Positions 2,212 through 41,980 of a DNA stretch of 64,000 nucleotides are shown in pieces. Every line of letters begins with the position of its first letter. Position 1 is the first letter of the stretch. The notes beneath the pieces are model-generated. The model did not search any database. It had not been told where the DNA came from and saw nothing but the letters and a program-made list of their open reading frames with translations. The translations under genes and the position numbers were made by a program. This DNA is from a phage. The stretch lies in sequence record PZ386971.1; one strand, given 5' to 3'.

Positions 2212-2263
2212 TCACTAAATATCTTTCAAATTGAGCGAAACTCTACAGAGAAGGAATAAGATT

Positions 2264-4159
2264 ATGGCAACTCAAAGCTTCAGCGTTGCGCCGTCCGTAC
2301 AGTGGACTGAGCGTGATGCCACGCTTCAGACGTCCCCATCCGTTGTTGTTCAGGGTGCGGCTGTCGGCAAATTCCAATGGGGTGAGGCAGAACTCCCTGT
2401 GTTGGTCACTGGTGGTGAAACTGGTCTGGTGAAGAAATTCTTCAAGCCAAACGATGCAACTGCCACCGACTTCTTAGTGATTGCTGACTTCCTGTCTTAC
2501 AGCTCTGTTGCATGGGTGACCCGTGTGGTCGGTCCGGCGGCACGCAACGCTGTAACCAAAGGTCAGACTGCAATCCTTATCCGCAACAAATTAGACTTCG
2601 AAACTGCGTCCCCATCTGCGTCTATTACCTGGACAGGCCGCTATGCTGGCTCTCTGGGTAACGACATTGCTGTGAACATCTGTGACGCTGCGCTGTTCCC
2701 GACCTGGGAATTCCGTAACAACTTCGCATATGCTCCGCAGGATGGCGAGTACCATATCGCCATCGTTGACAAAGTAGGTCGCATCACCGACTCTTCTGGC
2801 GCTGTTAGTCAGGTTGATCGTATCTCTGTATCCGGTACTGCCACCGCTGCTGGTTCCATCTCTGTTGCTGGTGAAGCCGTGGCGTACACTGACGCTGACA
2901 CCCCGGCGACTCTGGCGACAAAGATCGGAACTGCGCTGACGTCTCTGTCTGAAGTATATTCTTCTGTTGTCGTGAAGTCCAACACCGTCACCGTCACTCA
3001 CAAAGCAATCGGTCCTCAGGCTGCGACTGCGATTGTTCCAGACGCGAATGGCCTGACTGCTACCGCTGCCGTCACCACTGTTGGTGCTTCCGGTACGATC
3101 ATCGAGAAGTATGAACTGGTTCAGACCGCTCAGGGTTCTAAGAAATCTGATGGATCCAATGCATACTTCAAAGACGTGATCAACGGCACCTCAAATTGGG
3201 TGTACACCTTCGCCACTACCCTGGCTGCTGGTGTCATTGAACTCGAAGGTGGTGTAGACGATTACACTGGGAACCGTGTTGCGGCTATCCAGGCACTGAA
3301 CAACGCCGAAGCGTATGATGCCAAGCCAGTGTTCGGTTTCTGTGAAGAACTGATTGAGCAGCAGGCACTGATCGACCTGTCCACCGAGCGTAAAGACACA
3401 GTGTCCTTCGTGTCTCCTCTTCGCGATACGGTCGTCGGAAACCGTGGCCGTGAGATGGATGATGTTGTGGCCTGGCGTGAAAGTCTTGTTCGCGACTCCT
3501 CCTACTTCTTCATGGATGACAACTGGGCGTATGTGTACGACAAGTACAACGACAAAATGCGTTGGATTCCGGCTTGTGGCGGCACCGCAGGTGTTTGGGC
3601 GCGCAGCATTGAAATCGCGGGTATCTACAAATCTCCGGCGTTCCACAACCGTGGTAAATACAACAACTATAATCGAATGGCATGGTCTGCGTCTTCTGAT
3701 GAGCGTGCTGTGCTGTATCGCAACCAGATCAACAGCATTGTCACCTTCTCCAACGAAGGCATCGTGTTGTACGGCGACAAGACTGGCCTGACCCGCCCAT
3801 CTGCGTTCGACCGCATCAACGTTCGTGGTCTGTTCATTATGGCAGAGCAGAACATCGCAGCCATCGCCAAATACTACCTTGGTGAGAACAACGATGCATT
3901 CACTCGTGGGTTGTTCAGCAACGCTGTCCGCCCATATATCCGCCAGTTGGCCAACATGGGCGCGATCTATGACGGGATGGTGAAGTGTGATGAGGACAAC
4001 AACACTGCGGAAGTTATCGCTGCCAACCAGATGGTTGCTGGTATCTGGCTGAAGCCCGAGTACAGCATAAATTGGGTGTATCTCGACTTCGCCGCCGTTC
4101 GCCCGGACATGGAATTCAGTGAGATCGAATCCGGTGGTGGTATCGTAGCCGCTTCTTAA
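2264..4159 (+). CDS. 18: Tail sheath protein (T4 gp18-like)
   Basis: 631 aa from ATG 2264 with AAGGAAT SD; N-terminal AAVGKFQWGEAELPV matches T4 gp18 ALAGKFQWGPAFQI; position after terminase; track ORF begins at an upstream in-frame TTG. Confidence 0.85.
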   Translation: MATQSFSVAPSVQWTERDATLQTSPSVVVQGAAVGKFQWGEAELPVLVTGGETGLVKKFFKPNDATATDFLVIADFLSYSSVAWVTRVVGPAARNAVTKGQTAILIRNKLDFETASPSASITWTGRYAGSLGNDIAVNICDAALFPTWEFRNNFAYAPQDGEYHIAIVDKVGRITDSSGAVSQVDRISVSGTATAAGSISVAGEAVAYTDADTPATLATKIGTALTSLSEVYSSVVVKSNTVTVTHKAIGPQAATAIVPDANGLTATAAVTTVGASGTIIEKYELVQTAQGSKKSDGSNAYFKDVINGTSNWVYTFATTLAAGVIELEGGVDDYTGNRVAAIQALNNAEAYDAKPVFGFCEELIEQQALIDLSTERKDTVSFVSPLRDTVVGNRGREMDDVVAWRESLVRDSSYFFMDDNWAYVYDKYNDKMRWIPACGGTAGVWARSIEIAGIYKSPAFHNRGKYNNYNRMAWSASSDERAVLYRNQINSIVTFSNEGIVLYGDKTGLTRPSAFDRINVRGLFIMAEQNIAAIAKYYLGENNDAFTRGLFSNAVRPYIRQLANMGAIYDGMVKCDEDNNTAEVIAANQMVAGIWLKPEYSINWVYLDFAAVRPDMEFSEIESGGGIVAAS

Positions 4160-4201
4160 TTTACTCCATGCCCTCTTCGGAGGGTACATTGAGGTATTGT
4201 T

Positions 4202-4504
4202 ATGAAAAGTTTTTCTCAATTTTTAGCAGAAGCAGGCCTAAAAGGTGACCTTCAGAAAGTTAAAGACTCCGTGATTGAATGGTTGGAAGACCAAGATGTA
4301 AGGCTCAAAAAGGGTGATATCGAAAATGGAGTATTTGGAGATTTCTTCCGCATAACCATTGATGATTTTGAATATACATATAATGGCAAAGAGATCAAAG
4401 TATTCGACCTGAAGAAAGATAAACAGGTTGTTAGCAAAGCTGCTGGAACTCGAGAAGCCCCAGGTGAACTCGGTAAATTGTTTAAGAAATACAGCAAAGT
4501 GTGA
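4202..4504 (+). CDS. Hypothetical small protein (100 aa)
   Basis: ORF with GAGGT SD, followed by a terminator hairpin; lies in the sheath-tube insertion. Confidence 0.5.
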   Translation: MKSFSQFLAEAGLKGDLQKVKDSVIEWLEDQDVRLKKGDIENGVFGDFFRITIDDFEYTYNGKEIKVFDLKKDKQVVSKAAGTREAPGELGKLFKKYSKV

Positions 4505-4508
4505 CAAG

Positions 4509-4530
4509 ACCCCGCTTCGGCGGGGTTTTA
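4509..4530 (+). terminator. Rho-independent terminator (ccccgcTTCGgcgggg + T-run)
   Basis: Perfect 6-bp GC stem with TTCG loop then TTTT; same hairpin sequence recurs at 12721. Confidence 0.6.
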
Positions 4531-4559
4531 AATTTTTCTAGATTATTTTATTGAATTAC

Positions 4560-4587
4560 TTTACTTCTTCAATAACTCACGTATAAT
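4560..4587 (+). promoter_or_regulatory. Early sigma70-type promoter (-35 TTTACT, 16 bp, -10 TATAAT), cassette A copy 1
   Basis: TTTACTtcttcaataactcacgTATAAT then conserved leader cataagcag..caacttgaaa and AGGAACTATATCATG. Confidence 0.55.
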
Positions 4588-4635
4588 TCTAAACATAAGC
4601 AGTACGACACCAACTTGAAACGAAGGAACTATATC

Positions 4636-4992
4636 ATGACCAAGACCGAAATTAACGCTATCCTGAAAGAAATCGGCCTCTGCAACCTGAAACGCCGCGT
4701 CAATCCTTACCAGCCCGCAAAGCCAGTACGCGACAGCCAGGGAAAGATGATAAAAGGGATCTACTGTGCAGATGTTGGCCCAATGACTGTGACCAGTCCA
4801 CACATTGACAGATTTAACGCTATTGTTGAGGAGTTTTGTGGTAAGGTTCTGGGTGAACTAGCTAATGATTTATGCTCCCCAGATACCAAAGTTGTAGCTT
4901 TCGGGAGCCACCTCGTCACATTCCACCTCACCAGCTTCCGTGCCCACGGTGATTATCATGTGTATTATGCTCAGGTTAGCATTCGCAAATAG
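4636..4992 (+). CDS. Hypothetical protein (118 aa)
   Basis: ATG at 4636 preceded by AGGAACTATATC; the track's MKRRNYIM N-terminus is an artefact of an in-frame TTG in the leader. Confidence 0.5.
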   Translation: MTKTEINAILKEIGLCNLKRRVNPYQPAKPVRDSQGKMIKGIYCADVGPMTVTSPHIDRFNAIVEEFCGKVLGELANDLCSPDTKVVAFGSHLVTFHLTSFRAHGDYHVYYAQVSIRK

Positions 4993-4998
4993 CAGTTT

Positions 4999-5022
4999 AC
5001 CCCGCTGAGGCGGGGTTTAGTT
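4999..5022. terminator. Bidirectional terminator hairpin between convergent genes
   Basis: accccgcTGAGgcggggt flanked by T/A runs, between the + ORF ending 4992 and the - gene ending 5017. Confidence 0.5.
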
Positions 5023-6801
5023 TTCCAGTTCATACCGGATAAGACCACACCCCCAGATACGCCCCAACCCGGCTTCCACCGACAGCATATCCTCTGTTTT
5101 GCCTTCTATATCGTATCCAAGTTTAAGGAATTTCTCTTTCCTGAAATTGAATTTGTGTATACGTAAGCTATAGTCTGGTGTCACATATTTGTAATCAGGG
5201 GGAAGGATTTCCTTTTCAACAAATCCGTTATTCAGGTAAACATTTTTCAGACGACTGACAACACAACGATCACCAAAAGAATATACTGTCTCACCCCGAT
5301 GTCGAGCGATATAATATTTCAGCAAGCGTGAGAATGCGCCATGGCAATTGTTAGAAGCAAATCTCACCAATTCAATACCATGCACTCGTTTGGTAAACAA
5401 CATCACCGCCTGGATATTCCCAGTTTTGTCTACAAGGTGTATATAATCTGTCGCCACCACACCACCTTGTATATGGAATCGGTCGAGAAAGTCCTTGGAC
5501 GTCCTATAGGAGCCTTCCAAAATGGTATGTTGGCGAGCGTATGACAATGGTTTCCCTATCCCCAATTTTGCTTTTAGGAGTGATTTAACCACTTCCTGTT
5601 TGTCACGCCACTCATCTTCCCAGATATGGATTAATTGAATACCCTGGGATTCACAGTGCATAGTCTTTTCAAGATGGTAGTCTTTGTATCGATGTTTCTC
5701 CGAATGCCAATACAACCCATTAAATTCTATTGCCAACTTATGTTCTGGGCAGTATATGTCTATCTGGCGTGTGGTCGCCCTCCCGTCGAACATTTTACCT
5801 CTGAGGACGGAGAAATTACCAGATTCATAAACGACACCCAATGAATCCAGGTATGAACATATTTCTATTTCTGGCTGTGTTTGGCTTTGGCTGCTGGGGT
5901 ATGTGAAAGAGTTCCTATATTCTTCAGAAGAGAAATAGTGAGGTACGCCGTATTTTTCTTTTGAAATGATCCTGGTATTGGCCTGGCTTCTATCCCATAT
6001 AGCCTTTACCTTCAACGGATAATCAACCCCATATTTTAAGACGCATGTTTTCTTTCTCTTTTCTATAATGGAATTGAGGAACATTGGATGATCCACACCA
6101 TAGATCTTCCTCCAAGTCTCAATCACCCTTTCCCTCACTTCTGGCATTTTCATGACGTGTGATACGCCATAGCGTTCCATGACAGAAGCAGCCACTCTGT
6201 CCTTTATAACATCAGACTTCATAGGGTGGTCGACCCCATATTTCTTAAGGGCAGTTTCCCGTGACTTTTGTTTTACTTCTTCCAGTTGGAATATGTTGGC
6301 TACGCCATATTTCTCTGTTATGGCGTTTTCTAGGTTGGCCCGTTCTGAGCCTCCCACCTTCATTGATTCTCGTTGGCATTCTTCGGAACAAAACTTTTTG
6401 TATCTGGGCGGTTGGGCTTCCATTTCTAAGCCGACGTCAGCACCGCAAGTGGCACACTGCGACTTCGGAATATCGTACAGCCAAGCAGTTATCGCTTGTG
6501 GTTCTTCTAATAGGTCGTTGTGTGACACCACGTATCCAACAACATCAACCCCAGTATGGGCCGTGAGTAGGGGATGAGAGATAAGTTTGTAGTTCAACGA
6601 ACCATCTTTCTTCCTGAGTTTACTATCAACCCAAGAGCGGCATTCGGTTTCGGTCGTCGGGATGTCATCCAACAAACCCGGATTGCGTTTCATCGTTCCC
6701 AGCATGAATGATTTGCATTCGTCACTACAATACAACGCAGCCTTCCTGGTTGGGGTGAACGGTTTGTGGCAGCATAAACAATTTTTATCGGGGAATGGCA
6801 T
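5017..6801 (-). CDS. Homing-endonuclease-like protein: N-terminal Cys cluster, six tandem KYGV..HP repeats, Vsr/DUF559-like PD-(D/E)XK nuclease domain
   Basis: 594 aa from ATG 6801 (GAGGAT SD); N-terminal CLCCH..C..C; repeats KYGVANI / KYGVDHPM / RYGVSHVM / IYGVDHPM / KYGVDYPL / KYGVPHYF; IDIYCPEHKLAIEFNGLYWHSE...IHIWEDEW resembles the Vsr/DUF559 fold; antisense insertion between conserved sheath and tube genes. Confidence 0.55.
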   Translation of the reverse strand: MPFPDKNCLCCHKPFTPTRKAALYCSDECKSFMLGTMKRNPGLLDDIPTTETECRSWVDSKLRKKDGSLNYKLISHPLLTAHTGVDVVGYVVSHNDLLEEPQAITAWLYDIPKSQCATCGADVGLEMEAQPPRYKKFCSEECQRESMKVGGSERANLENAITEKYGVANIFQLEEVKQKSRETALKKYGVDHPMKSDVIKDRVAASVMERYGVSHVMKMPEVRERVIETWRKIYGVDHPMFLNSIIEKRKKTCVLKYGVDYPLKVKAIWDRSQANTRIISKEKYGVPHYFSSEEYRNSFTYPSSQSQTQPEIEICSYLDSLGVVYESGNFSVLRGKMFDGRATTRQIDIYCPEHKLAIEFNGLYWHSEKHRYKDYHLEKTMHCESQGIQLIHIWEDEWRDKQEVVKSLLKAKLGIGKPLSYARQHTILEGSYRTSKDFLDRFHIQGGVVATDYIHLVDKTGNIQAVMLFTKRVHGIELVRFASNNCHGAFSRLLKYYIARHRGETVYSFGDRCVVSRLKNVYLNNGFVEKEILPPDYKYVTPDYSLRIHKFNFRKEKFLKLGYDIEGKTEDMLSVEAGLGRIWGCGLIRYELEN

Positions 6802-6882
6802 AATAAATATCCTCACTTTGGAGTATTTTAACCCCCATTTATTTCAAAACTAAATATTTACACTATTCAGAGGAGAACGACC

Positions 6883-7416
6883 ATGGCTACAGTTAATGAA
6901 TTCAGAGCAGCTATGTCACGCGGGGGTGGCGTTCAGCGCCAACACCGCTGGCGTGTGACTGTTAACTTCCCTTCCTTCGTGGCTGGAAGCGATACCATCC
7001 GTGATGTTTCGCTGTTGGCGGTGACCACAAATACCCCAACAGGCCAGCTCGGGGAGATACTCGTCCCATGGGGTGGTCGTGAACTTCCATTCCCAGGTGA
7101 CCGTCGTTTTGAGGCTCTGCCTGTAACGTTTATCAACGTTGTGGACAACGCCCCGTACAACGCATTCGAAGTCTGGCAGCAGTACATCAACGGCAGCAAC
7201 AACAACCGTGCGTCTGCTAACCCAGATGATTATTTCCGTGATGTAATCATGGAACTGCTGGATGCGAATGACAATGTCACCAAGACCTGGACCCTTCAGG
7301 GCGCCTGGCCTCAGAACCTCGGTCAGCTGGAACTGGACATGTCTGCAATGGACTCTTATACTCAGTTCACTGTTGACCTGCGTTACTTCCAGGCCATTTC
7401 AGACAAGTCTCTCTAA
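6883..7416 (+). CDS. 19: Tail tube protein (T4 gp19-like)
   Basis: 177 aa; C-terminal TWTLQGAWPQNLGQLELDMSAMDSYTQFTVDLRYFQ parallels T4 gp19 KGLWPTNVGELQLDWDSNNEIQTFEVTLALDYWE. Confidence 0.85.
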   Translation: MATVNEFRAAMSRGGGVQRQHRWRVTVNFPSFVAGSDTIRDVSLLAVTTNTPTGQLGEILVPWGGRELPFPGDRRFEALPVTFINVVDNAPYNAFEVWQQYINGSNNNRASANPDDYFRDVIMELLDANDNVTKTWTLQGAWPQNLGQLELDMSAMDSYTQFTVDLRYFQAISDKSL

Positions 7417-16240: not shown

Positions 16241-16648
16241 TCAGTGCTCCCGCGCCGGAAGAACTCCCACTGGTTCGATGCCATCCAACAGCAGGGAGTT
16301 CACACCCACATTACTCAGTCTGATCAAGATCGTTCCCCCTGGGTTAACTTCAAAGATACTCATCCCATTTCCAACCGCGTCGTTGTTAACGAACACACCC
16401 TGAGTTGCGATTCGTACTGGTTTATCTGAGTCATTCATGATCTTGAACGTCACGATTATATCCGATGTTGTACCCAGTCGTCCAACCATGCGTTGCTTCA
16501 GCTTGGCATAGAATGATGGATTAAAAGTGATAATGATGCTGTTGTTCTGAGAGTAATAAATACTGGCTGAAAGGTATGGAATCTTCCCTTCATCGCCACG
16601 CCGCAGGAGAGGAATTGTGGTCTTCCAGTATGGCTTGAGGGTGCTCAT
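16241..16648 (-). CDS. Hypothetical protein (136 aa), convergent with the upstream + gene
   Basis: C-terminal 136 aa of the minus ORF read as a well-behaved beta-rich protein (MSTLKPYWKTT...); the upstream part of that ORF is W/C/R-rich antisense-like junk. Confidence 0.4.
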   Translation of the reverse strand: MSTLKPYWKTTIPLLRRGDEGKIPYLSASIYYSQNNSIIITFNPSFYAKLKQRMVGRLGTTSDIIVTFKIMNDSDKPVRIATQGVFVNNDAVGNGMSIFEVNPGGTILIRLSNVGVNSLLLDGIEPVGVLPAREH

Positions 16649-16917
16649 GTTCTCATCAAAGCAACCTAAAGGTACGAGCTTCTGGAAGGGCTGGAACTCT
16701 TGCACGATGATGTCCAGCATACCCTTGTTACAAGTGGGAACGCTGGCCGACAACATCACAGGTACGGTGCGCACTTCCGGGGTCCAGAGTTCGGAAACAG
16801 AAATTATTGGCGTGACAAAGATACGACAGCTCGTAAACAAGAGCATCGAGCATGCCAACAACAATCTACTGATCCCGCGCATCAGGGTCACAAAATATCT
16901 CCACAGCAAAGGTGCTA

Positions 16918-17420
16918 TTATGTCCAACGTACAATTCAAGAACGAAAACCCTAATTTCGCGGCGTCCGATAAGTGGCGTCTGACTATCGGAGACCTTGTA
17001 CTCCTAACCCGTAACATCCACGACTTCAGTATACCAGGGGTGTACTCCGAAGGCATCGATGGTCCGTCGCCAGGAGACGTACTGGTTTCTATTCCTTCAG
17101 AACGTTTAACCTATGATCCCGTCGTATTTACTTTCGTTATAGACGAGGACTGGAAATCATGGTTACAGATCCACCAATGGATTACCAGCAACGTCGGCAA
17201 GGATTTGCCTGTCAGCAAGGACATTACCATTGAATTGCTGGATAACCTCAACCGACCGATTGGCCTCACTCTAGTGCTGGAGGAAGCCCGCCCGACTGCT
17301 TTGGACAACGTACTGGTGGACGTAGACGCGGCTGTACCTCAGCTGGTGACGACAGTGACCTTCAAGTTCCAACAGCTGGTTCCACTATCTGGTGGGAAGG
17401 CGATTGATTCTAATCAGTGA
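16918..17420 (+). CDS. Hypothetical protein (167 aa; N-terminus may extend to about 16707)
   Basis: ATG 16918 with AAAGGTG SD; protein-like sequence to the stop at 17420. Confidence 0.5.
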
Positions 17421-25903: not shown

Positions 25904-27922
25904 ATGTCAGATTTTAAGCCCTTCGCAGTAGCTGTCAACAATAACGTGCTGGCCATGTCAGCAACTGGTCTGTTCATGACCAACATCGATAAAGATGCTC
26001 TGTGGGATCTGTATCTGTCTTCTTTCCCTGCTGGCACTAACCCGCTTTATCGTGAGCGTACCGAGCACGACTGCACCTGCTGTAAACAATTCATCCGTAA
26101 TATCGGCGGTGTGGTCACCATCGACTCCGACCTGAACGTGATCTCTATCTGGGATAACATTCAGCTGGGTAACGAATACGACGTTGTCGCTGCGGCGCTG
26201 TCAGCATATGTTAAGCAGCACGCAATCGTCGACGTGTACTTCAACGACACCAAGAAAGTTGGTGTTGAGTCGAATCACGAAATGAAAGACGGTATTGCCC
26301 GCACCTACAACCACTTCCACACCGACCTGCTGGGTAGCTATGTTCTGCGGGCAGATACCATCGCTTCTAAGAAGGGCGAAATCCGCCAGGCGATTGAAGT
26401 GTTTGAGCGCGGTCTGCGCGAACTGTCTCTGGAATCGGCTGAAATCGTTCTGGAATTGATTGACCAGAATTCTCTGTATCGCGGTGAAGAGCACAAAGCG
26501 GCAGTGCAGGCGTTCGTGGTGAACAAGACCCTGTACGAACAAACTGCAGAAGAGAAACGCGCTCTGTGGGCTTGGCGCACTGGCTACCGTGCAAACGGTC
26601 ATACCCCTCACGGCATTCGTAATACCGTGATTGGCTCTCTGCTGGTAGACCTCAATGAAGGCCGGGATTTGGAAACCGCCGTGAAGTCCTTTGAAGCCAA
26701 AGTCGCCCCGACGAACTACAAGCGCCCAACCGCGCTGGTCACGAAGTCGATGATTGAAAACGCGCAGAAAGAAGTCGAAGCGCTGGGTCTGACTGATTCA
26801 CTGGGTCGCCGTTATGCCGTGTATGACGATCTGACCATCAACAACGTTCTGTTCGCCGATCTGGCAGCTCAGAAGAAGATGGACCCGTTTGCTCAGCTGG
26901 CGTCTGAAGTGAAGACTCCGACCAAGTCCCTGGACAAGGTTGAAGAGATCACGATCGACGACTTCCTGGCCAACGTGTTGCCAAAGGCGCATTCCCTGGA
27001 AGTGCTGGTCGAAAACTCTCACATTGGCAACCTGATGTCCCTGATCGCTCCGGCTACCGCAGGCGCTCCTAACCTGTTCAAATGGAACAACGGTTTCAGC
27101 TGGTCATACAACGGTGAAGTGGCCGACTCCATCAAAGAGCGCGTGAAGACAGCAGGCGGCAACGTTGACAGCTTCCTCCGGGTGTCACTGGCTTGGCATA
27201 ACAACGACGACCTGGATCTGAGCATGAACGATCCTCTTCACAACCACGTATATTTTCGCAACCGTCGTTCGACAACTGGCGCAACTCTGGACATCGACAT
27301 GAACGGTATGGACGGCATTGACCCAAATCGCCGTCCGGTGGAGAACATCTTCTTCAGCGATGAACGCAAGCTACGTGACGGGAATTATGAGTTCTATGTC
27401 ACCAACTTCAACAAGCGTGAAACCTGTGACGTTGGTTTCGAAATCGAAGTCGAATACAAAGGCCAGACCAAGCGCTTCTCACACCCTGGCCTGGGTAACA
27501 AAGATCGCACGTTGGCTGTTGTGGTTCAGGTTCGCGCTGGTCAGGTGGTTGACATCAGTTCTACCCTGAAAGACGACGCTCGCTCTCAGGAAATCTGGGG
27601 CATCAAGACCTCCGTCTTCCAGAAGGTACAGCTGGTTCTGAACTCACCAAACCATTGGGACGGCGAGCAGACGGGCAACAAGCACGTGTTCTTCATCCTG
27701 GAAGGTTGTGCTAACCCTGTCGGCACCCGTGGTTTCTATAACGAATATCTGAAGCCGGAACTTGATAAACACCGCAAGGTTTTTGAAATGTTAGGTGGTA
27801 AGATTAAAGTACAGCCAAGCAATGAGCAGCTGTCCGGTCTGGGCTTCTCTACCACCCAACGCAACCACGTGTTCGTGAAGGTGAGCGGTTCGTTCAACCG
27901 CACTGTGAAAGTTGTGTTCTAA
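25904..27922 (+). CDS. Hypothetical large protein (672 aa)
   Basis: Clean ORF preceded by AGGAAGATTACATCATG; Cys cluster HDCTCCKQF near N-terminus; no recognisable catalytic motif. Confidence 0.6.
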   Translation: MSDFKPFAVAVNNNVLAMSATGLFMTNIDKDALWDLYLSSFPAGTNPLYRERTEHDCTCCKQFIRNIGGVVTIDSDLNVISIWDNIQLGNEYDVVAAALSAYVKQHAIVDVYFNDTKKVGVESNHEMKDGIARTYNHFHTDLLGSYVLRADTIASKKGEIRQAIEVFERGLRELSLESAEIVLELIDQNSLYRGEEHKAAVQAFVVNKTLYEQTAEEKRALWAWRTGYRANGHTPHGIRNTVIGSLLVDLNEGRDLETAVKSFEAKVAPTNYKRPTALVTKSMIENAQKEVEALGLTDSLGRRYAVYDDLTINNVLFADLAAQKKMDPFAQLASEVKTPTKSLDKVEEITIDDFLANVLPKAHSLEVLVENSHIGNLMSLIAPATAGAPNLFKWNNGFSWSYNGEVADSIKERVKTAGGNVDSFLRVSLAWHNNDDLDLSMNDPLHNHVYFRNRRSTTGATLDIDMNGMDGIDPNRRPVENIFFSDERKLRDGNYEFYVTNFNKRETCDVGFEIEVEYKGQTKRFSHPGLGNKDRTLAVVVQVRAGQVVDISSTLKDDARSQEIWGIKTSVFQKVQLVLNSPNHWDGEQTGNKHVFFILEGCANPVGTRGFYNEYLKPELDKHRKVFEMLGGKIKVQPSNEQLSGLGFSTTQRNHVFVKVSGSFNRTVKVVF

Positions 27923-27966
27923 ACCTGATTTGAAATTGTAACCCATTCATCATTGAGGATAGTAAA

Positions 27967-28338
27967 ATGTTTGATAAAGCAACCCGTATGAAACTGCGCT
28001 TCGAGTCTAACAAAGGCCTGTTGTCTGTTGAGCAGGTCTGGGACCTGAGCCTGACTGCCCTGAACGAAATGGCGAAAGGTCTGAGCCGTCAGGTGAAAGC
28101 AGCAGAAACCGATGAAGAAGATTTCATTGGTACCAAAAGCAACGTTGACTCCGAACTGCAGCTGCGCTTCGACGTTGTCAAGCACATCATCGGCGTTAAG
28201 CTGAAAGAACGTGACGACAGCAGAGACGCGGCAGAGCGTAAGGCGAACAACCAGATTATCCTGGAGCTGATCCAGCGTAAGAAACAGCAAGAGCTGGAAA
28301 GCAAATCTGTTGAAGAACTGGAAGCACTCCTGAAATAA
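27967..28338 (+). CDS. Hypothetical charged helical protein (123 aa)
   Basis: ORF with GAGGAT SD; followed by a terminator hairpin. Confidence 0.5.
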   Translation: MFDKATRMKLRFESNKGLLSVEQVWDLSLTALNEMAKGLSRQVKAAETDEEDFIGTKSNVDSELQLRFDVVKHIIGVKLKERDDSRDAAERKANNQIILELIQRKKQQELESKSVEELEALLK

Positions 28339-28361
28339 TCTGTCTGACCTCAGCCTGAGCA

Positions 28362-28388
28362 ACCCCGCCATGTGCGGGGTTTCTTTTG
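28362..28388 (+). terminator. Rho-independent terminator
   Basis: ccccgcCATGTgcgggg then TTTCTTTT. Confidence 0.55.
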
Positions 28389-28398
28389 GACAAAGAAT

Positions 28399-28773
28399 AT
28401 GAAACCTGTTATATGCGATTACTGTGGCCTCCCAGCCGAATTCGTCGGTGGTGATGTTCTCTACCCTCATCACCCTGACCTCCGCAATCTGAAGTTCTGG
28501 GTGTGCACTCCATGTGATGCCCGTGTCGGTTGCCATGCCCATGGCGACGGCAGACAACCTTTGGGAAGGATGGCGAATGCCGCTCTCCGTGCTGCTAAGC
28601 AAAAAGCCCATAGATCGTTTGACCCATTATGGAAAAGCGGAGAGAGGAGCAGGAGCGACGCTTACAGTTGGCTGGCGCATAAGCTGGGGATTAAGAAGCG
28701 CGATTGCCATATCGGCTTGTTCGATATCGACATGTGCCGTAAAGTAGTGGAGGTCTGTAAACAAATATCATAG
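28399..28773 (+). CDS. Zinc-ribbon protein (125 aa)
   Basis: CDYC...(n)...CTPCDARVGCHAH Cys/His cluster. Confidence 0.5.
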   Translation: MKPVICDYCGLPAEFVGGDVLYPHHPDLRNLKFWVCTPCDARVGCHAHGDGRQPLGRMANAALRAAKQKAHRSFDPLWKSGERSRSDAYSWLAHKLGIKKRDCHIGLFDIDMCRKVVEVCKQIS

Positions 28774-38924: not shown

Positions 38925-40643
38925 GTGACAGCATTCAACCAATATACCAAGGCGCTTGACGGCGTCGGACCAGTCAGCATAGACCGCATCAAGTCTCTTG
39001 CCACTGAGTTCTTCCCGTATGACACCGCCAACCCCGGCCAGATGGAATGCATCGTTGAAGCCATTGATGCCCTTGTGAATAAGAAATTCAAACACGTGAT
39101 CATCGAGGCTCCGACTGGTGTAGGTAAATCCCTCATCGGCACTACCATCCATAATGTGCTTCGCCATTTGGTTCTTGAGCACAACCCGTATGGTCAGTTC
39201 CGCACGTCTATCACGACGCCGACCAAAGGTTTACAGGATCAGTATGCAGCAGAGAAAGCCGTGGCGATAGACATCCTGAAGGGCAAGAAGAACTACCGTT
39301 GCCACATCAGTCCCGACCTATACTACAACGCCATTCAGTGCCGTATGGCATGCCGTGATGGCCACTGTAGTAAGAATCGTTGCCCATATGTTCAGGCGCG
39401 TCGACAGTGGACCGACGTCTCCTCCCTGCGCTGCACCAACGCCGCCATGATGGTGGAGATGTGTACGACGATTTGTATGAAGCCGGAAAACCGTGCCGAT
39501 ATGCTGATCCTTGACGAGTGTCATAAGATGCCCTCTACGCTCCTAGAGCATACTATCATGGAATACAACATAAAGGCTGTGGAAGGGTTGCTTACGATCC
39601 CCGAGGGAGTGCCTATCGTGGAGACCATCAAGGATATCATCATCCGCACAGAGAACTATGAATTGGGCAAGCTGTATTCCCTGTCTGGTGAGATGCATGC
39701 GATATTTGATGAACTACACGGCAAGGTTGAAGCCCTGTTGGAAACTCTTGAAGAACTGGTAGAGGATGAGCGCCTGACTGAAGCCCAGGTGATGAAGCTG
39801 TCTGATATTATTGATAATCTTCACAACCTCAGTGACTACTGCGGTATCATGGGGCAGACCAACGCCAGCACTTTCATCGTACAGGAGAAGGACAAGGGTA
39901 TGATTCAGTTCAAGCCTGTCATCGCCTCTGATGTATCCCAGTTCGGTCTGTTCCGCAAGGGTGACTACCACGTTCACATGTCGGCGACCATCTGCGGGAT
40001 TGACTCGTACGCCCGGTCACTGGGTATCCGCGAGGGTGAGTACCACAAGATACAGATCGGCAACCCTATCCCGATTGAGAACCGGAAAGTCAACTACATG
40101 CCCATCATGAAGATGACAGCGAACATGGGTGACTACGAGATGAAGAAGCTGGCTGAATACGTGGATGAAATTATCGCGTTCCACCCTGGGCAGTCTGGCA
40201 TCATTCACACAGTCAGTTATGACCGCGCCCTGGCTCTACAAAAGTTCAGTAAGTACCGGAATATGATTCACGTTCCTCGTACTCGTAAGGCTCTGATGGA
40301 CATCATGGAAAACGCGTTCAGGACGAAGACGCCTTGTGTCATCGCCAGTCCGGCCATGGAAGAGGGGTATGACTTCAAAGGCGATTATAGTCGATTTCAG
40401 ATCTTGATCAAAGTGCCATACGATTACCTTGGTGATCCTCTGGTGGCCCACGTCAACAGTGTGGACCCATCGGCGTACTTCAGGATGGCGGTACTGCGTA
40501 TCGTTCAGATGTGTGGGCGTTCGGTCAGGGGCGTGAATGACTGGGCTGCGACGTACATCCTTGATTCTTCTTTTGAATCACTGATGATGCGCAACCCAGA
40601 GTTCTTCCCCGCTTGGTTCACTGATGCCGTGTTTGAGGTTTAG
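38925..40643 (+). CDS. DinG/XPD-like Fe-S SF2 helicase
   Basis: 572 aa; APTGVGKS Walker A; four-Cys cluster CHISPDLYYNAIQCRMACRDGHCSKNRC; DECH box. Confidence 0.75.
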   Translation: MTAFNQYTKALDGVGPVSIDRIKSLATEFFPYDTANPGQMECIVEAIDALVNKKFKHVIIEAPTGVGKSLIGTTIHNVLRHLVLEHNPYGQFRTSITTPTKGLQDQYAAEKAVAIDILKGKKNYRCHISPDLYYNAIQCRMACRDGHCSKNRCPYVQARRQWTDVSSLRCTNAAMMVEMCTTICMKPENRADMLILDECHKMPSTLLEHTIMEYNIKAVEGLLTIPEGVPIVETIKDIIIRTENYELGKLYSLSGEMHAIFDELHGKVEALLETLEELVEDERLTEAQVMKLSDIIDNLHNLSDYCGIMGQTNASTFIVQEKDKGMIQFKPVIASDVSQFGLFRKGDYHVHMSATICGIDSYARSLGIREGEYHKIQIGNPIPIENRKVNYMPIMKMTANMGDYEMKKLAEYVDEIIAFHPGQSGIIHTVSYDRALALQKFSKYRNMIHVPRTRKALMDIMENAFRTKTPCVIASPAMEEGYDFKGDYSRFQILIKVPYDYLGDPLVAHVNSVDPSAYFRMAVLRIVQMCGRSVRGVNDWAATYILDSSFESLMMRNPEFFPAWFTDAVFEV

Positions 40644-41407
40644 TAACCCGCAACGAAGGACAGATGGCACTTGACATTCGGTTCCAACGACGTCACAGAA
40701 ACCGTCATATTGTCCGTATCTTGGCTGAAGTCAATGGTGGCGAGAGGTTTGGTCTGAATATGGTTGTAAACACTGTAGATCAGATCCTCGCCACGATACC
40801 CTACCTTCCCGTCGGTGTCTTGCCAATGACCCAGTGTTTCATCGTAGACATGCACTCTGAACTCGATCATATGGAAGAGTGCCTTGGGGATGTCCTTGAG
40901 TACGCTGGTGCCAACCACGGGAATCTCTATGCTGGAATCATTGGAGTTCCCTTCATAGACCGAAGCCCATGCAAAGGTAGGATCACCCCCAGCAACAGGG
41001 GTTCGCTTCCAGTATTGGAATTCTGGGTTGCCTGAAGCGTTCTTCTGAAGTAGAATGACCTCACCACCTTTGAAGTTCGAGGTATCGATGTCGCCTCGCT
41101 GAAGTTCATCTGCTGGAGATCCAATAAATTTCCAACCTTCGCGATCCAGTAAAGACTTATAATAGTCGGTGAACACGTTGCTGTCTTCTGCATCGTTGAT
41201 GGCATCTTTGAGACCTTGGCCTGTCACCATCTCGTTGAGCTTCAACCACATGTTCTTGACAGCAGACGCTGCTGCGACTTGTCCAGCAGTCCCACCTGCA
41301 GCATAATCATAGATGATATCTTCTGACTTGATAGCATCATAGATAGAGAGGAGCAATTGCTCAATCTGCGGGGCGGTGAGACTGAAACGATATGCGCGGG
41401 GTGCCAT
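40640..41407 (-). CDS. Hypothetical protein (255 aa)
   Basis: Minus-strand ORF from ATG with GAGGAA SD; the track's upstream extension (52 aa) looks like junk. Confidence 0.5.
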   Translation of the reverse strand: MAPRAYRFSLTAPQIEQLLLSIYDAIKSEDIIYDYAAGGTAGQVAAASAVKNMWLKLNEMVTGQGLKDAINDAEDSNVFTDYYKSLLDREGWKFIGSPADELQRGDIDTSNFKGGEVILLQKNASGNPEFQYWKRTPVAGGDPTFAWASVYEGNSNDSSIEIPVVGTSVLKDIPKALFHMIEFRVHVYDETLGHWQDTDGKVGYRGEDLIYSVYNHIQTKPLATIDFSQDTDNMTVSVTSLEPNVKCHLSFVAGY

Positions 41408-41452
41408 AGTTTCATTCCTCTTTCTATAAAACCAGTTTGGGATATTTATATC

Positions 41453-41980
41453 ATGATAGAAATTTATTCTGACGGGGGTTCTAACCCGAAGACCAACCAG
41501 GCCGCAGGCTGGGCATTTGTCATCAGGCCAATAACGGGTATGCAATGGAAGGTGTTCTTCGGTCATCTACCTCCCCCGTCCACTAACAATATCGCCGAGT
41601 TGTTGGGTGTGACCAACGCATTGAAGCTACTGTGGGCATTCTCAGGAAAGGGTGAGCGCAGAATACCAAAGGCAACAATTTGGTCTGACAGCCAATATGC
41701 CATCAAGAGTGTCACCGAATGGCGAGCGAAGTGGGAGTATCAGGGTTTCCCAGAAAAGAACGTTGAACTCATCAAAGATCTGTTCAGAATCTATGATCTC
41801 GTTTGTTCAATTTGTGATGTTGAACTAAAATGGGTTAAGGGTCATGCGGGGCACGAAGGCAACGAACTTGCCGATGACTGGGCCACAGCAGCCAAAAACG
41901 ACAGCAACTTCCTGATTGAGAATGACAAGATCTCAGTGAAGAAGGTTGTTGGATCTTTTGATGAATTTATCGGTATCTGA
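41453..41980 (+). CDS. rnhA: Ribonuclease HI
   Basis: YSDGGS...GWAFVI, TNNIAELLGV, WSDSQYAI, VKGHAGHEGNELADDWA match the RNase H type 1 catalytic motifs. Confidence 0.85.
   Translation: MIEIYSDGGSNPKTNQAAGWAFVIRPITGMQWKVFFGHLPPPSTNNIAELLGVTNALKLLWAFSGKGERRIPKATIWSDSQYAIKSVTEWRAKWEYQGFPEKNVELIKDLFRIYDLVCSICDVELKWVKGHAGHEGNELADDWATAAKNDSNFLIENDKISVKKVVGSFDEFIGI

Follow-up and report, generated by a model that had tools for sequence, protein, structure and literature searches.

A probable Hef-like homing endonuclease gene between the tail sheath and tail tube genes of a phage

Described relatives and the reading of the gene

Hef-type enzymes were assigned in 2011 to the Vsr-like EDxHD family of homing endonucleases (Taylor et al., PMC3239194), and U5 hef was reported to cleave nrdB (PMC2988022). 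Another member, F-LimVIII of Dickeya phage vB_DsoM_LIMEstone1 (LIMEstone1), was listed as a Hef-like free-standing endonuclease adjoining the tail tube gene (Adriaenssens et al. 2012, PMC3296691). The gene described here lies between the sheath and tube genes of a 64,000-nucleotide stretch of phage DNA (PZ386971.1), called the window in this text, and its product was 90% identical to F-LimVIII at the amino acid level. Identity was 95-96% to the annotated homing endonucleases of PC3, PH4 and ZQ1, which are Ackermannviridae of E. coli, and 80% to the Kuttervirus orthologues of Salmonella phages Mutine, maane and KE31. The copy in A221 was as similar as those of the E. coli phages, yet it is annotated as a hypothetical protein. 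The protein also matched PHROG 3339, "homing endonuclease", over its full length (E 2.2e-191). BLASTP against Acj9p227, a "putative Hef-like homing endonuclease" whose gene in Acj9 lies between nrdA and nrdB, gave an E of 7e-38 with 28% identity. With high probability, the gene encodes a free-standing homing endonuclease belonging to the Hef-like clade within the Vsr-like EDxHD family and is an orthologue of F-LimVIII. Its architecture is already known, as an orthologue has been published as a Hef-like homing endonuclease, and it does not represent a new kind of system.

The features of the locus are shown in Table 1. The minus-strand open reading frame was uninterrupted from 5017 to 6816 when a GTG start is included (599 aa). 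However, a GAGGA motif lies 8 nt upstream of the ATG at 6801, and the GTG at 6816 falls within that ribosome-binding site. The ATG is thus the likely start, which agrees with the 5' end proposed in an earlier, model-made reading of the sequence (the preliminary description). The gene is intact and under purifying selection, with an overall dN/dS of 0.13-0.29 and values of 0.10-0.52 for all the domains in all pairs compared. It had been called the only long minus-strand gene in the structural module. It is indeed the longest on that strand, but it is not the sole credible one in the window, since the genes at 16244-17056 and 40643-41566, both on the minus strand, matched PHROG families with E values of 2e-94 and 8e-160. 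No paralogues were detected when the protein was searched with tblastn across the entire window. Three or four paralogues are found at other sites in LIMEstone1-type genomes.

Table 1. Coordinates of the endonuclease gene, its encoded domains and the neighbouring features in the window
Feature	Coordinates	Strand	Remarks
Insert, low in G+C, relative to the AG3-type empty sheath-tube junction	4160..6882	.	Two small plus-strand ORFs and the endonuclease gene
Small ORFs of the insert	4202-4504; 4615/4636-4992	+	Hairpin after each
G+C-rich hairpin	5000..5015	.	CCCCGC-TGAG-GCGGGG; common to the convergent small ORF (stop 4990-4992) and the endonuclease gene
Probable Hef-like (EDxHD-family) free-standing homing endonuclease CDS	5017..6801	-	594 aa; ATG at 6801, stop TAA 5017-5019
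Predicted C-terminal GNAT-fold domain (aa 412-594)	5020..5568	-	Basic (+8.4); invariant R423, H443, Q445, R480, G488, Y522
Vsr-like nuclease domain (aa 305-411)	5569..5889	-	E311, D348, E359, N361, H366, H376, K379
Six tandem 23-aa repeats, Pfam DUF7487	5911..6348	-	Long helix, KYGV-x-HP loop, short helix; basic (+8)
Second zinc-ribbon motif, FCS/YacG-like	6376..6456	-	C116, C119 ... C138, C142; CATCG...FCSEEC
First zinc-ribbon-like motif	6715..6780	-	C8, C11 ... C25, C29; CLCCH...YCSDEC
81-bp putative divergent control region of the endonuclease and tube genes	6802..6882	.	Both ribosome-binding sites and palindrome CTAAATATTTAC (6850-6861)
First ~200 nt of the tube gene, cassette-linked allele (co-conversion tract)	6883..7082	+	Differences all synonymous

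Domains of the protein

Cysteine motifs are present near the N terminus, as had been noted, but they form two separate CxxC-Xn-C(S)xxC motifs rather than one cluster. The first contained beta-hairpins in the AF2 model and gave weak Pfam matches to DUF2256, NinG and treble-clef families; it was not conserved in the wider family. Each of the four cysteines of the second was at least 90% conserved among 118 homologues, and the weak Pfam matches were to zf-FLZ, zf-MYND and YacG.

The count of six tandem repeats given in the preliminary description was correct, with YGV motifs at aa 165, 188, 211, 234, 257 and 284. However, their period is 23 aa and not approximately 33, and they span approximately nt 5911-6348 and not 5830-6320. 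When the protein sequence was shuffled 10,000 times, three or more YGV motifs arose in just 3 cases. One interval, the fifth, measures 27 aa. Among the 118 homologues, 398 of 408 intervals had the 23-aa spacing, copy number ranged from 1 to 11, and the family median charge of the repeats was +10.6. HMM searches, a check suggested for both the repeats and the nuclease, recovered the former as Pfam DUF7487 (aa 151-300; E 4e-27; 96 bits, cut-off 27) and the latter as DUF559, as described below. Tandem Repeats Finder detected no DNA-level repeats between 5000 and 6850, and the repeats therefore exist at the protein level only. It is plausible that the array recognizes DNA, as had been proposed. 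This idea was weakened because the Mutine gene occupies the same locus even though its repeats 3-6 are replaced by a very divergent array, and because minimal family members carry the nuclease and GNAT-fold domain only and have no repeats. A TALE-like arrangement, in which the repeats would serve as a specificity code, was considered and is weakened by the same two findings.

Sequence comparisons supported the Vsr-like nuclease domain recognized earlier and its placement in the EDxHD family. The two stretches that had drawn attention, IEFNGLYWH (aa 358-366) and IHIWEDEW (aa 391-398), map to nt 5608-5730, within the range first given. A profile built from 21 nuclease domains of the family matched the catalytic domain of I-Bth0305I (PDB 3r3p) with an E of 2.9e-9 and 40 bits over profile positions 6-97 of 100, compared to an E of 0.0035 for the single sequence. 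With the isolated domain, Pfam gave matches to DUF559 (23.4 bits, cut-off 20.6), Vsr (E 0.006) and MTES_1575. The protein had been described as atypical of GIY-YIG, HNH or LAGLIDADG endonucleases, and no Pfam or NCBIfam model for these domains matched the whole protein or any of its four parts at E values up to 10. PHROG names containing "HNH" (phrog_559) matched the Vsr-like and GNAT-fold region only.

The putative active site was examined in two alignments. In the profile alignment to 3r3p, D348, E359, N361 and H366 fell on D196, E206, N208 and H213, respectively. An hhalign comparison to E. coli Vsr paired E311 with E25, D348 with D51, N361 with H64 and H366 with H69; the Vsr query, which was not a database record, fits all eight residue numbers quoted in PMC3239194. 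E311, D348 and H366 correspond to the Glu, Asp and His of the motif (E170, D196 and H213 in I-Bth0305I; E25, D51 and H69 in Vsr), and E359 is the acidic residue at the position of Vsr F62 (I-Bth0305I E206). E359 and H366 were found in all 118 homologues, D348 in 117, E311 in 115 and N361 in 109, so the catalytic residues survive a proper alignment. At the position of the final Asp of the motif, no Asp was conserved in the Hef-like clade. The profile alignment placed the invariant H376 at I-Bth0305I D222 (Vsr D97) and the invariant K379 at K225. Alternatively, hhalign to Vsr aligned YHLEKT with FWLEKI, which puts H376 on Vsr W86 and deletes the Vsr segment bearing Asp97. An ungapped register would put E378, which is N, D or E in the family, at the final Asp position. 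The published definition of the EDxHD family includes Hef-type proteins all the same (PMC3239194). The nuclease domain is acidic, unlike the basic repeats and GNAT-fold domain.

The further C-terminal domain of approximately 180 aa mentioned in the preliminary description is real, and structure prediction along with a faint profile signal points to a GNAT fold. Its sequence similarity to the GNAT superfamily, including Mom, was near noise (best E 0.013). The isolated domain had no Pfam match even at an E of 10. The Gly-rich beta4-alpha3 loop was in the right place, with the consensus V-x-G-G-A-S-K-L, in which G488 is invariant and S491 is at least 90% conserved. The family median charge of the domain was +11.2, and 20,431 protein cluster representatives carry it. 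This GNAT-like terminal domain is the sole little-described feature of the gene, and no mention of a Hef-like GNAT-fold domain was found in the literature searched. The invariant polar residues R423, H443, Q445, R480 and Y522 suggest a defined pocket more than they do a generic surface for DNA binding.

We prefer to read the GNAT-fold domain as a non-catalytic module for DNA binding or target recognition. Another explanation is that it is catalytic or binds a cofactor (acyl-CoA or similar), in which case the enzyme would be bifunctional and would couple DNA cleavage to acyl-transfer, DNA modification or metabolite sensing. Phage Mu Mom, a GNAT-fold enzyme that modifies DNA, provides a comparison. 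This explanation is unlikely, since the Q/R of acyl-CoA motif A (Q/R-x-x-G-x-G/A) is absent, no Pfam acetyltransferase model detects the domain, and the unusually basic charge (+11) fits nucleic-acid binding. Also, non-catalytic GNAT folds are known (e.g., 3zj0), and the minimal family members need a DNA-binding module, for which the GNAT-fold domain is the only candidate. It is similarly doubtful that the domain is a Mom-like module, active or ligand-binding, that modifies or reads DNA beyond the role of a clamp. Catalysis would be a surprise. If this Mom-like reading were true, a very large Hef-like clade would consist of nuclease-acyltransferase hybrids, whose cleavage would depend on a cofactor or on the modification state of the DNA, such as hypermodified thymidines. 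Hypermodified thymidines have been reported in the Ackermannviridae.

The insert and its flanks in related phages

The gene had been described as an insertion, and comparison of the junction in related phages agreed with this. The AG3 junction was inspected directly and is empty, with a length of 78 bp, and the record span of P46FS4 is equal to that of AG3 (1856 bp). The insert has a G+C content of 43.1%, compared to 53.1% and 52.8% for the neighbouring sheath and tube genes, respectively. RPN242 aligned with the window up to 4184 and resumed at 6883, with flanks that were 96-98% identical. The junction is occupied by GIY-YIG genes in ViI and RPN242, and other endonuclease genes are also found there in Klebsiella phages. 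The gene was present in 26 of the 284 related records with these flanks, in two subfamilies, and was therefore absent from approximately 90% of them. LHE287 carries a decayed copy, in which an internal deletion of 1.46 kb, located at an AGTT microhomology, has removed the equivalent of window positions 5131-6590 and a premature stop is found at codon 6 of the remnant. This polymorphism of presence, absence and decay at one locus is strong evidence for mobility. A nuclease without catalytic residues, or a gene universal at this position, would have spoken against the preliminary description; since the residues are present and insert-free junctions exist, neither objection holds, and its interpretation of the gene as homing-endonuclease-like is supported. 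The sheath-tube junction of the Ackermannviridae provides a natural series, from empty to GIY-YIG-occupied, Hef-like-occupied, doubly invaded and decayed, in otherwise near-identical phages.

It could be argued that the gene, although of homing-endonuclease ancestry, is now kept for the benefit of the phage and not by selfish spread, for example to exclude competitors or satellites or to degrade foreign DNA. The purifying selection on all four domains and the retention of the gene in all 20-21 Dickeya phage records found are consistent with such domestication, and phage nucleases that derive from homing endonucleases and act in defence or regulation have been described, as far as the reference list of PMC10448857 indicates. 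We regard domestication as improbable, because the gene is missing from most relatives with the same flanks, is replaced by an unrelated endonuclease gene in a relative as close as RPN242 and has decayed in LHE287. A cycle of invasion, decay and loss fits selfish elements and not useful genes.

On either side of the gene are two short intergenic features. The hairpin at its 3' end is likely a bidirectional terminator; a hairpin of the same type lies at the corresponding end in LIMEstone1 and Mutine, where it carries a terminator annotation. The 81-bp spacer at the other end may have promoter function, since the LIMEstone1 spacer is 95% identical and late-promoter -10 signals are annotated there on both strands at the palindrome. 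The head-to-head arrangement with the tube gene across this common control region, and the double role of some homing endonucleases as repressors (I-TevI), would suit a catalytically dead DNA-binding protein that regulates, for example, the divergent tube-gene promoter, but this is very improbable with catalytic residues intact in 115-118 of the 118 homologues (109 for N361) and the tube gene expressed in relatives without the endonuclease.

The start of the tube gene was found to travel with the cassette. Over tube nt 1-200, identity to the window was 95% for LIMEstone1 and 93% for Mutine, compared to 85% and 84% over nt 201-534, and the endonuclease-free ViI and AG3 were 79% identical to the window over nt 1-200. 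After approximately nt 210, the Mutine tube gene was identical to that of ViI at 59-60 of 60 positions. ORF2, the endonuclease gene, the spacer and tube nt 1-200 of Mutine, a Kuttervirus, were 91-95% identical to the window in a ViI-like background, and the neighbouring portal gene was just 73% identical. The gene and its flanking DNA have thus been transferred as a block between phage genera, with Mutine as a recipient. No shared tract was found on the left side, where the window was compared with LIMEstone1 and Mutine over the final 200 nt of the sheath gene. The tube 5' allele was also considered as proof of the target site, and this was rejected. The allele is also present in RPN242, where a GIY-YIG gene takes the place of the Hef-like one, and a remnant of that GIY-YIG gene persists in LIMEstone1; therefore, a GIY-YIG enzyme may have made the co-conversion tract. 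The tract proves block transfer and not cutting by the protein of the window.

Proposed mode of action and comparison with known systems

As a homing endonuclease, the protein would act in mixed infections with a related phage that lacks the gene, where it would bind a long target in the DNA of that phage. This target may lie within or close to either the sheath-tube junction or the beginning of the tube gene, and the protein would contact it through its basic modules, namely the zinc ribbons, the six helical repeats and the GNAT-fold domain. Cutting would then fall to the acidic Vsr-like domain, which by analogy to I-Bth0305I is probably dimeric, with a metal-dependent active site composed of E311, D348, E359, N361 and H366. 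Repair of the cut genome by recombination, with the carrier genome as template, would introduce the gene along with flanking DNA. The allele of the carrier itself presumably escapes cleavage. Transcription of the gene would begin in the divergent spacer, run antisense to the late structural genes and stop at the shared hairpin. No cleavage, binding or homing experiments on this gene or its close orthologues were found in the literature searched. The Hef-like clade, with more than 20,000 cluster representatives, is biochemically uncharacterised beyond U5 Hef. Its 23-aa repeat array of variable copy number and basic GNAT-fold domain are undescribed and could be of interest as DNA-recognition parts.

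The orthologues in LIMEstone1, the E. coli phages and Kuttervirus are the same as the gene of the window in length, minus-strand orientation, sheath-tube locus, 3' hairpin and 5' spacer. They differ in the extra small ORFs between the sheath gene and the endonuclease gene, with two in the window and ZQ1, one in Mutine and none in LIMEstone1. In LIMEstone1, unlike the window, a GIY-YIG remnant separates the cassette from the tube gene.

Further relatives are Hef (homing endonuclease-like function) of the T4-related phage U5 and the Hef-like genes found in Acj9, 133 and Campylobacter phages (PMC2988022; PMC2993671). The Acj9 protein is homologous to that of the window over the repeats, nuclease and GNAT-fold domain, and both genes are free-standing and sit in intergenic slots that are also used by other classes of endonuclease. 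In contrast to these genes, the window's gene has a tail-gene locus and presumed target instead of nrdB, and its product has a longer N terminus with an extra zinc ribbon and helical region.

I-Bth0305I, the EDxHD prototype and the sole enzyme of that family to have been studied structurally, has a homologous nuclease with the equivalent Glu, Asp, Glu, Asn and His, and its DNA-binding region is likewise N-terminal to the nuclease. However, it is an intron-encoded protein of 266 aa that ends with the nuclease domain and has no GNAT-fold domain, and it has two NUMOD/HTH motifs where the protein of the window has zinc ribbons and 23-aa repeats. Its Asp222 aligns with the invariant His (H376) of the Hef-like clade. 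Vsr and the DUF559/MTES_1575 proteins share the nuclease fold family and the active-site layout. Vsr differs in its substrate, T:G mismatches, at which it makes nicks, and in the presence of intercalating Trp residues and its own zinc site, and a region of approximately 11 Vsr residues that includes Asp97 is shortened in the protein of the window. Compared to the GNAT superfamily, including phage Mu Mom (PDB 8bv8), the predicted GNAT-fold domain differs in its strongly basic charge and its fusion to a nuclease.

The endonuclease gene and its surroundings

A minus-strand gene at 5017-6801 had been reported between the tail sheath and tail tube genes, and it held up as a single open reading frame. 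The ATG at 6801 appears to be a better start than the GTG at 6816, as GAGGA lies 8 nt upstream of the ATG, GTG 6816 is part of that ribosome-binding site, and the equivalent ATG is the annotated start in all orthologues. G+C content is 43.1% in the interval between the two structural genes (4160-6882), compared to 53.1% in the sheath gene and 52.8% in the tube gene. In Dickeya phage LIMEstone1, the annotation of the sequence homologous to the spacer palindrome marks late-promoter -10 signals on each strand. Identity to Escherichia phage vB_EcoM-ZQ1, and also to A221, PC3 and PH4 (Ackermannviridae, Aglimvirinae), is 97% across the region, and the flanks are 81-88% identical to Ackermannviridae of Dickeya, Salmonella, Klebsiella and Shigella.

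Features of the sheath-tube junction, and domains and residues of the endonuclease protein (aa), with equivalents in I-Bth0305I and E. coli Vsr and conservation among homologues
Feature	Position	Strand	Remarks
Tail sheath gene	2231-4159		Flanks endonuclease gene
Two small ORFs	4202-4504; 4615/4636-4992 (small ORF 2)	+	Between sheath gene and 3' end of endonuclease gene
G+C-rich hairpin	5000-5015		Exactly between stops of small ORF 2 and endonuclease gene
Endonuclease ORF	6816 (GTG) or 6801 (ATG) to stop 5017-5019	-	Single open reading frame
Palindrome CTAAATATTTAC	6850-6861		Within 81-bp spacer to tube gene
Tail tube gene	6883-7416		Flanks endonuclease gene
LHE287 remnant of endonuclease gene	L001 2995-3410		Equivalent to window 5017-6882; absent from record's annotation
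Zinc-ribbon-like motif 1	C8/C11...C25/C29		
Zinc-ribbon-like motif 2	C116/C119...C138/C142		At least 90% conserved in 118 homologues
Six repeats	YGV at aa 165, 188, 211, 234, 257, 284		
Vsr-like nuclease domain	aa 305-411		
Nuclease residue	E311		I-Bth0305I E170; Vsr E25; 115/118
Nuclease residue	D348		I-Bth0305I D196; Vsr D51; 117/118
Nuclease residue	E359		I-Bth0305I E206; Vsr F62 position; 118/118
Nuclease residue	N361		I-Bth0305I N208; Vsr H64; 109/118
Nuclease residue	H366		I-Bth0305I H213; Vsr H69; 118/118
C-terminal domain	aa 412-594		

Both small ORFs are low in G+C (37.6% for 4202-4504), and a CCCCGC...GCGGGG hairpin comes after each. No Pfam or PHROG match was found for the first. 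Small ORF 2 belongs to PHROG 13016 (E 1e-42), a family without assigned function, and travels with the endonuclease gene in Salmonella phage Mutine (92% identity). Neither ORF is present in LIMEstone1, RPN242 or AG3.

Two more credible minus-strand genes, both of unassigned function, occur in this mostly plus-strand module: 16244-17056 (PHROG 3832, E 2e-94) and 40643-41566 (PHROG 3833, E 8e-160). The ORF at 27922-28611 (-) had no match in PHROG. The terminase large subunit gene (1-2211, +) appears to contain a 159-aa mini-intein (328-804, +; aa 110-268; C...SHN/T) in its Walker A loop (ARQSGK/intein/TTVV). This putative intein matched Pfam Intein_splicing at E 7.5e-7 and 29.5 bits, under the 35.8 cut-off, the Terminase_6N match resumes directly after it at aa 269, and no endonuclease domain was visible in it. 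The terminase gene is annotated at 2211 nt in Escherichia phage LHE287 and RPN242 and at 2208 nt in ZQ1.

Domains of the endonuclease protein

The preliminary description called the nuclease Vsr-like, and this was borne out by a profile of 21 diverse nuclease domains from the family, which matched 3r3p, the sequence of the crystallised I-Bth0305I catalytic domain, over the whole domain (E 2.9e-9). An hhalign comparison with E. coli Vsr, using a Vsr sequence that reproduces the published residue numbers, gave the same residue pairs. The domain does not lack catalytic residues, since these are aligned and conserved (I-Bth0305I numbering per PMC3239194). At the final Asp of EDxHD, the profile alignment places the invariant H376, with the invariant K379 three residues further, while the Vsr alignment deletes the corresponding segment instead. 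Based on the alignment, the Hef-like clade may use His where I-Bth0305I has Asp222.

The second zinc-ribbon-like motif showed weak matches to FCS-type, YacG and MYND fingers. The repeats had been put at about 33 aa, but the measured period is 23 aa; among homologues, 398 of 408 spacings are 23 aa and copy number ranged from 1 to 11. Three or more YGV arose in just 3 of 10,000 shuffles of the protein. The repeat region is Pfam DUF7487 (96 bits vs a cut-off of 27), and each unit is predicted by the AlphaFold model (pLDDT 92.5) to form a 15-residue helix, a KYGV-x-HP loop and a short helix. No DNA-level repeat was found under the array, and DUF7487 was mentioned nowhere in the literature searched. 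In I-Bth0305I, the nuclease dimer gives most of the specificity and the contacts of the N-terminal region are largely non-specific (PMC3239194).

The C-terminal domain was not recognised by Pfam. It was confidently modelled as a GNAT fold (pLDDT 91.2, pTM 0.82), the top Foldseek matches of the full model were exclusively GNATs, and its profile gave three hits in total against all PDB sequences, all of them GNATs in register with motifs A and B. It is carried by 20,431 cluster representatives, nearly always C-terminally in proteins of 450-650 aa, and minimal family members, such as those of Campylobacter phages (10-12 copies per genome), are made up of the nuclease and GNAT-fold domains alone. 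A few proteins have two GNAT-fold copies. Family median charges of +10.6 for the repeats and +11.2 for the GNAT-fold domain make both strongly basic, and the nuclease domain is acidic. We favour a DNA-binding or recognition role for the GNAT-fold domain because it is very basic and is the sole non-nuclease part of the minimal members. Against this role, the invariant R423, H443, Q445, R480, G488 and Y522, together with an LY..LGF motif that has been kept, would allow for a genuine ligand pocket. The protein is unlikely to be a bifunctional enzyme whose GNAT-fold domain is active, a reading that would overlap with a homing role. One GenBank record names a homologue 'putative nuclease/acetyltransferase'. 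The literature searched nowhere mentioned a GNAT domain in Vsr-like homing endonucleases.

Junction states and mosaicism

The gene had been proposed to be an insertion at the 18-19 junction, and the suggested comparison across relatives revealed empty, GIY-YIG, Hef-like and decayed states. The AG3 junction is empty, with 78 bp comprising a terminator hairpin and the tube-gene leader, and the record span of P46FS4 equals that of AG3. ViI carries a 459-bp GIY-YIG gene and RPN242 one of 714 bp, between flanks 96-98% identical to the window. The endonuclease gene occurs alone in LIMEstone1, with one small ORF in Mutine, and with two in the window and ZQ1. LHE287 has both small ORFs and a remnant of the gene, in which codon 6 is a stop and 1.46 kb (window 5131-6590) is deleted internally at an AGTT microhomology. 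The gene is not universal at this position, as an orthologue was found in only 26 of the 284 records with these flanks. These carriers span two subfamilies, Aglimvirinae (Limestonevirus and E. coli phages) and Cvivirinae (Kuttervirus Mutine, maane and KE31). There is thus evidence that the gene is mobile now or was recently, and a domesticated nuclease is decidedly improbable.

Mutine is close to the window across small ORF 2 (92%), the endonuclease gene (91%), the spacer (95%) and tube nt 1-200 (93%), but identity is only 84% over tube nt 201-534 and 73% for the portal gene. Past about tube nt 210, Mutine matches ViI at 59-60/60 positions. The differences within the Mutine tract are all synonymous, and block transfer is visible here; LIMEstone1 shows the same step, from 95% to 85%. 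The stretch between the LIMEstone1 orthologue, F-LimVIII, and the tube gene (L005 2778-3067) holds a copy of the 81-bp spacer together with a sheath terminator hairpin of the AG3 type and both ends (5' and 3') of a GIY-YIG gene of the RPN242 type (translation ...TTGWQLIRIV, then stop). This fossil attests to a previous invasion of the slot. These three elements, along with RPN242, which also has the tube 5' allele, indicate that the slot has seen repeated invasions. The GIY-YIG enzyme, rather than the Hef-like one, could have left the tube tract as its footprint. The LIMEstone1 cassette, the gene with its adjoining DNA, lies upstream of the AG3-type hairpin and a few nt at most from the stop codon of the sheath gene. 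Another locally divergent tract lies beside the junction at the sheath 3' end (window 3960-4159, +; last ~150-200 nt): window and RPN242 sheath genes are identical at 59-60/60 positions, but at 50-52/60 in the last ~150 nt. One of the two cassettes may have left it behind as a co-conversion footprint.

Pairwise dN/dS among the window, ZQ1, LIMEstone1 and Mutine was 0.13-0.29 overall, at most 0.52 in any domain, and 0.10-0.30 in the GNAT-fold domain. That the protein is an inactive regulator, with its catalytic residues conserved, is scarcely credible. The gene itself is mosaic. The window and LIMEstone1 are near-identical in the repeat region (dS 0.055), with dS of ~0.7 in the N-terminal region and GNAT-fold domain. 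The Mutine orthologue (L006 1483-3258) has a very divergent array in place of repeats 3-6 (window 5911-6200, -; dN 0.45, dS 1.7), with dS of 0.2-0.7 elsewhere and the locus unchanged. This pattern argues for module exchange, and the replacement at the same locus argues against the repeats as the sole determinant of the target site.

Proposed mechanism and known relatives

The preliminary observation was confirmed with corrections such as the repeat period, and its interpretation is supported: this is very probably a homing endonuclease gene. The zinc ribbons, repeats and GNAT-fold domain, all basic, would grip a long stretch of DNA, and the Vsr-like domain would cleave the non-carrier allele near the sheath-tube junction, the putative target. 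Repair of the cut genome by recombination would then bring in a copy of the cassette with its flanks.

The gene is already known, both as a kind and as a gene. PHROG 3339 'homing endonuclease' matched at full length (E 2.2e-191), and F-LimVIII, with 90% identity, has been described in print as a free-standing Hef-like homing endonuclease that adjoins the tail tube gene and runs antisense to the structural genes (PMC3296691). Taylor et al. (2011) expressly counted 'bacteriophage Hef type homing endonucleases' among the Vsr-like EDxHD enzymes (PMC3239194), and phage U5 hef is reported to cleave nrdB (PMC2988022). The family is very large, with at least 3339 homologues among 8000 candidates scored and a match to the protein in 429 phage records. 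Bacillus phage AR9 has one minimal nuclease plus GNAT-fold member under an RNA polymerase beta subunit gene, and relatives with DUF7487 or a zinc ribbon occur in giant viruses (Klosneuvirus, Marseillevirus, iridoviruses). The interest left lies in the accessory domains and in junction states that form an unusually complete natural series. The Hef-like protein of Acj9 aligns with the repeats and everything C-terminal to them in the endonuclease protein (E 7e-38), but is encoded between nrdA and nrdB, whereas the endonuclease gene lies at the sheath-tube junction.
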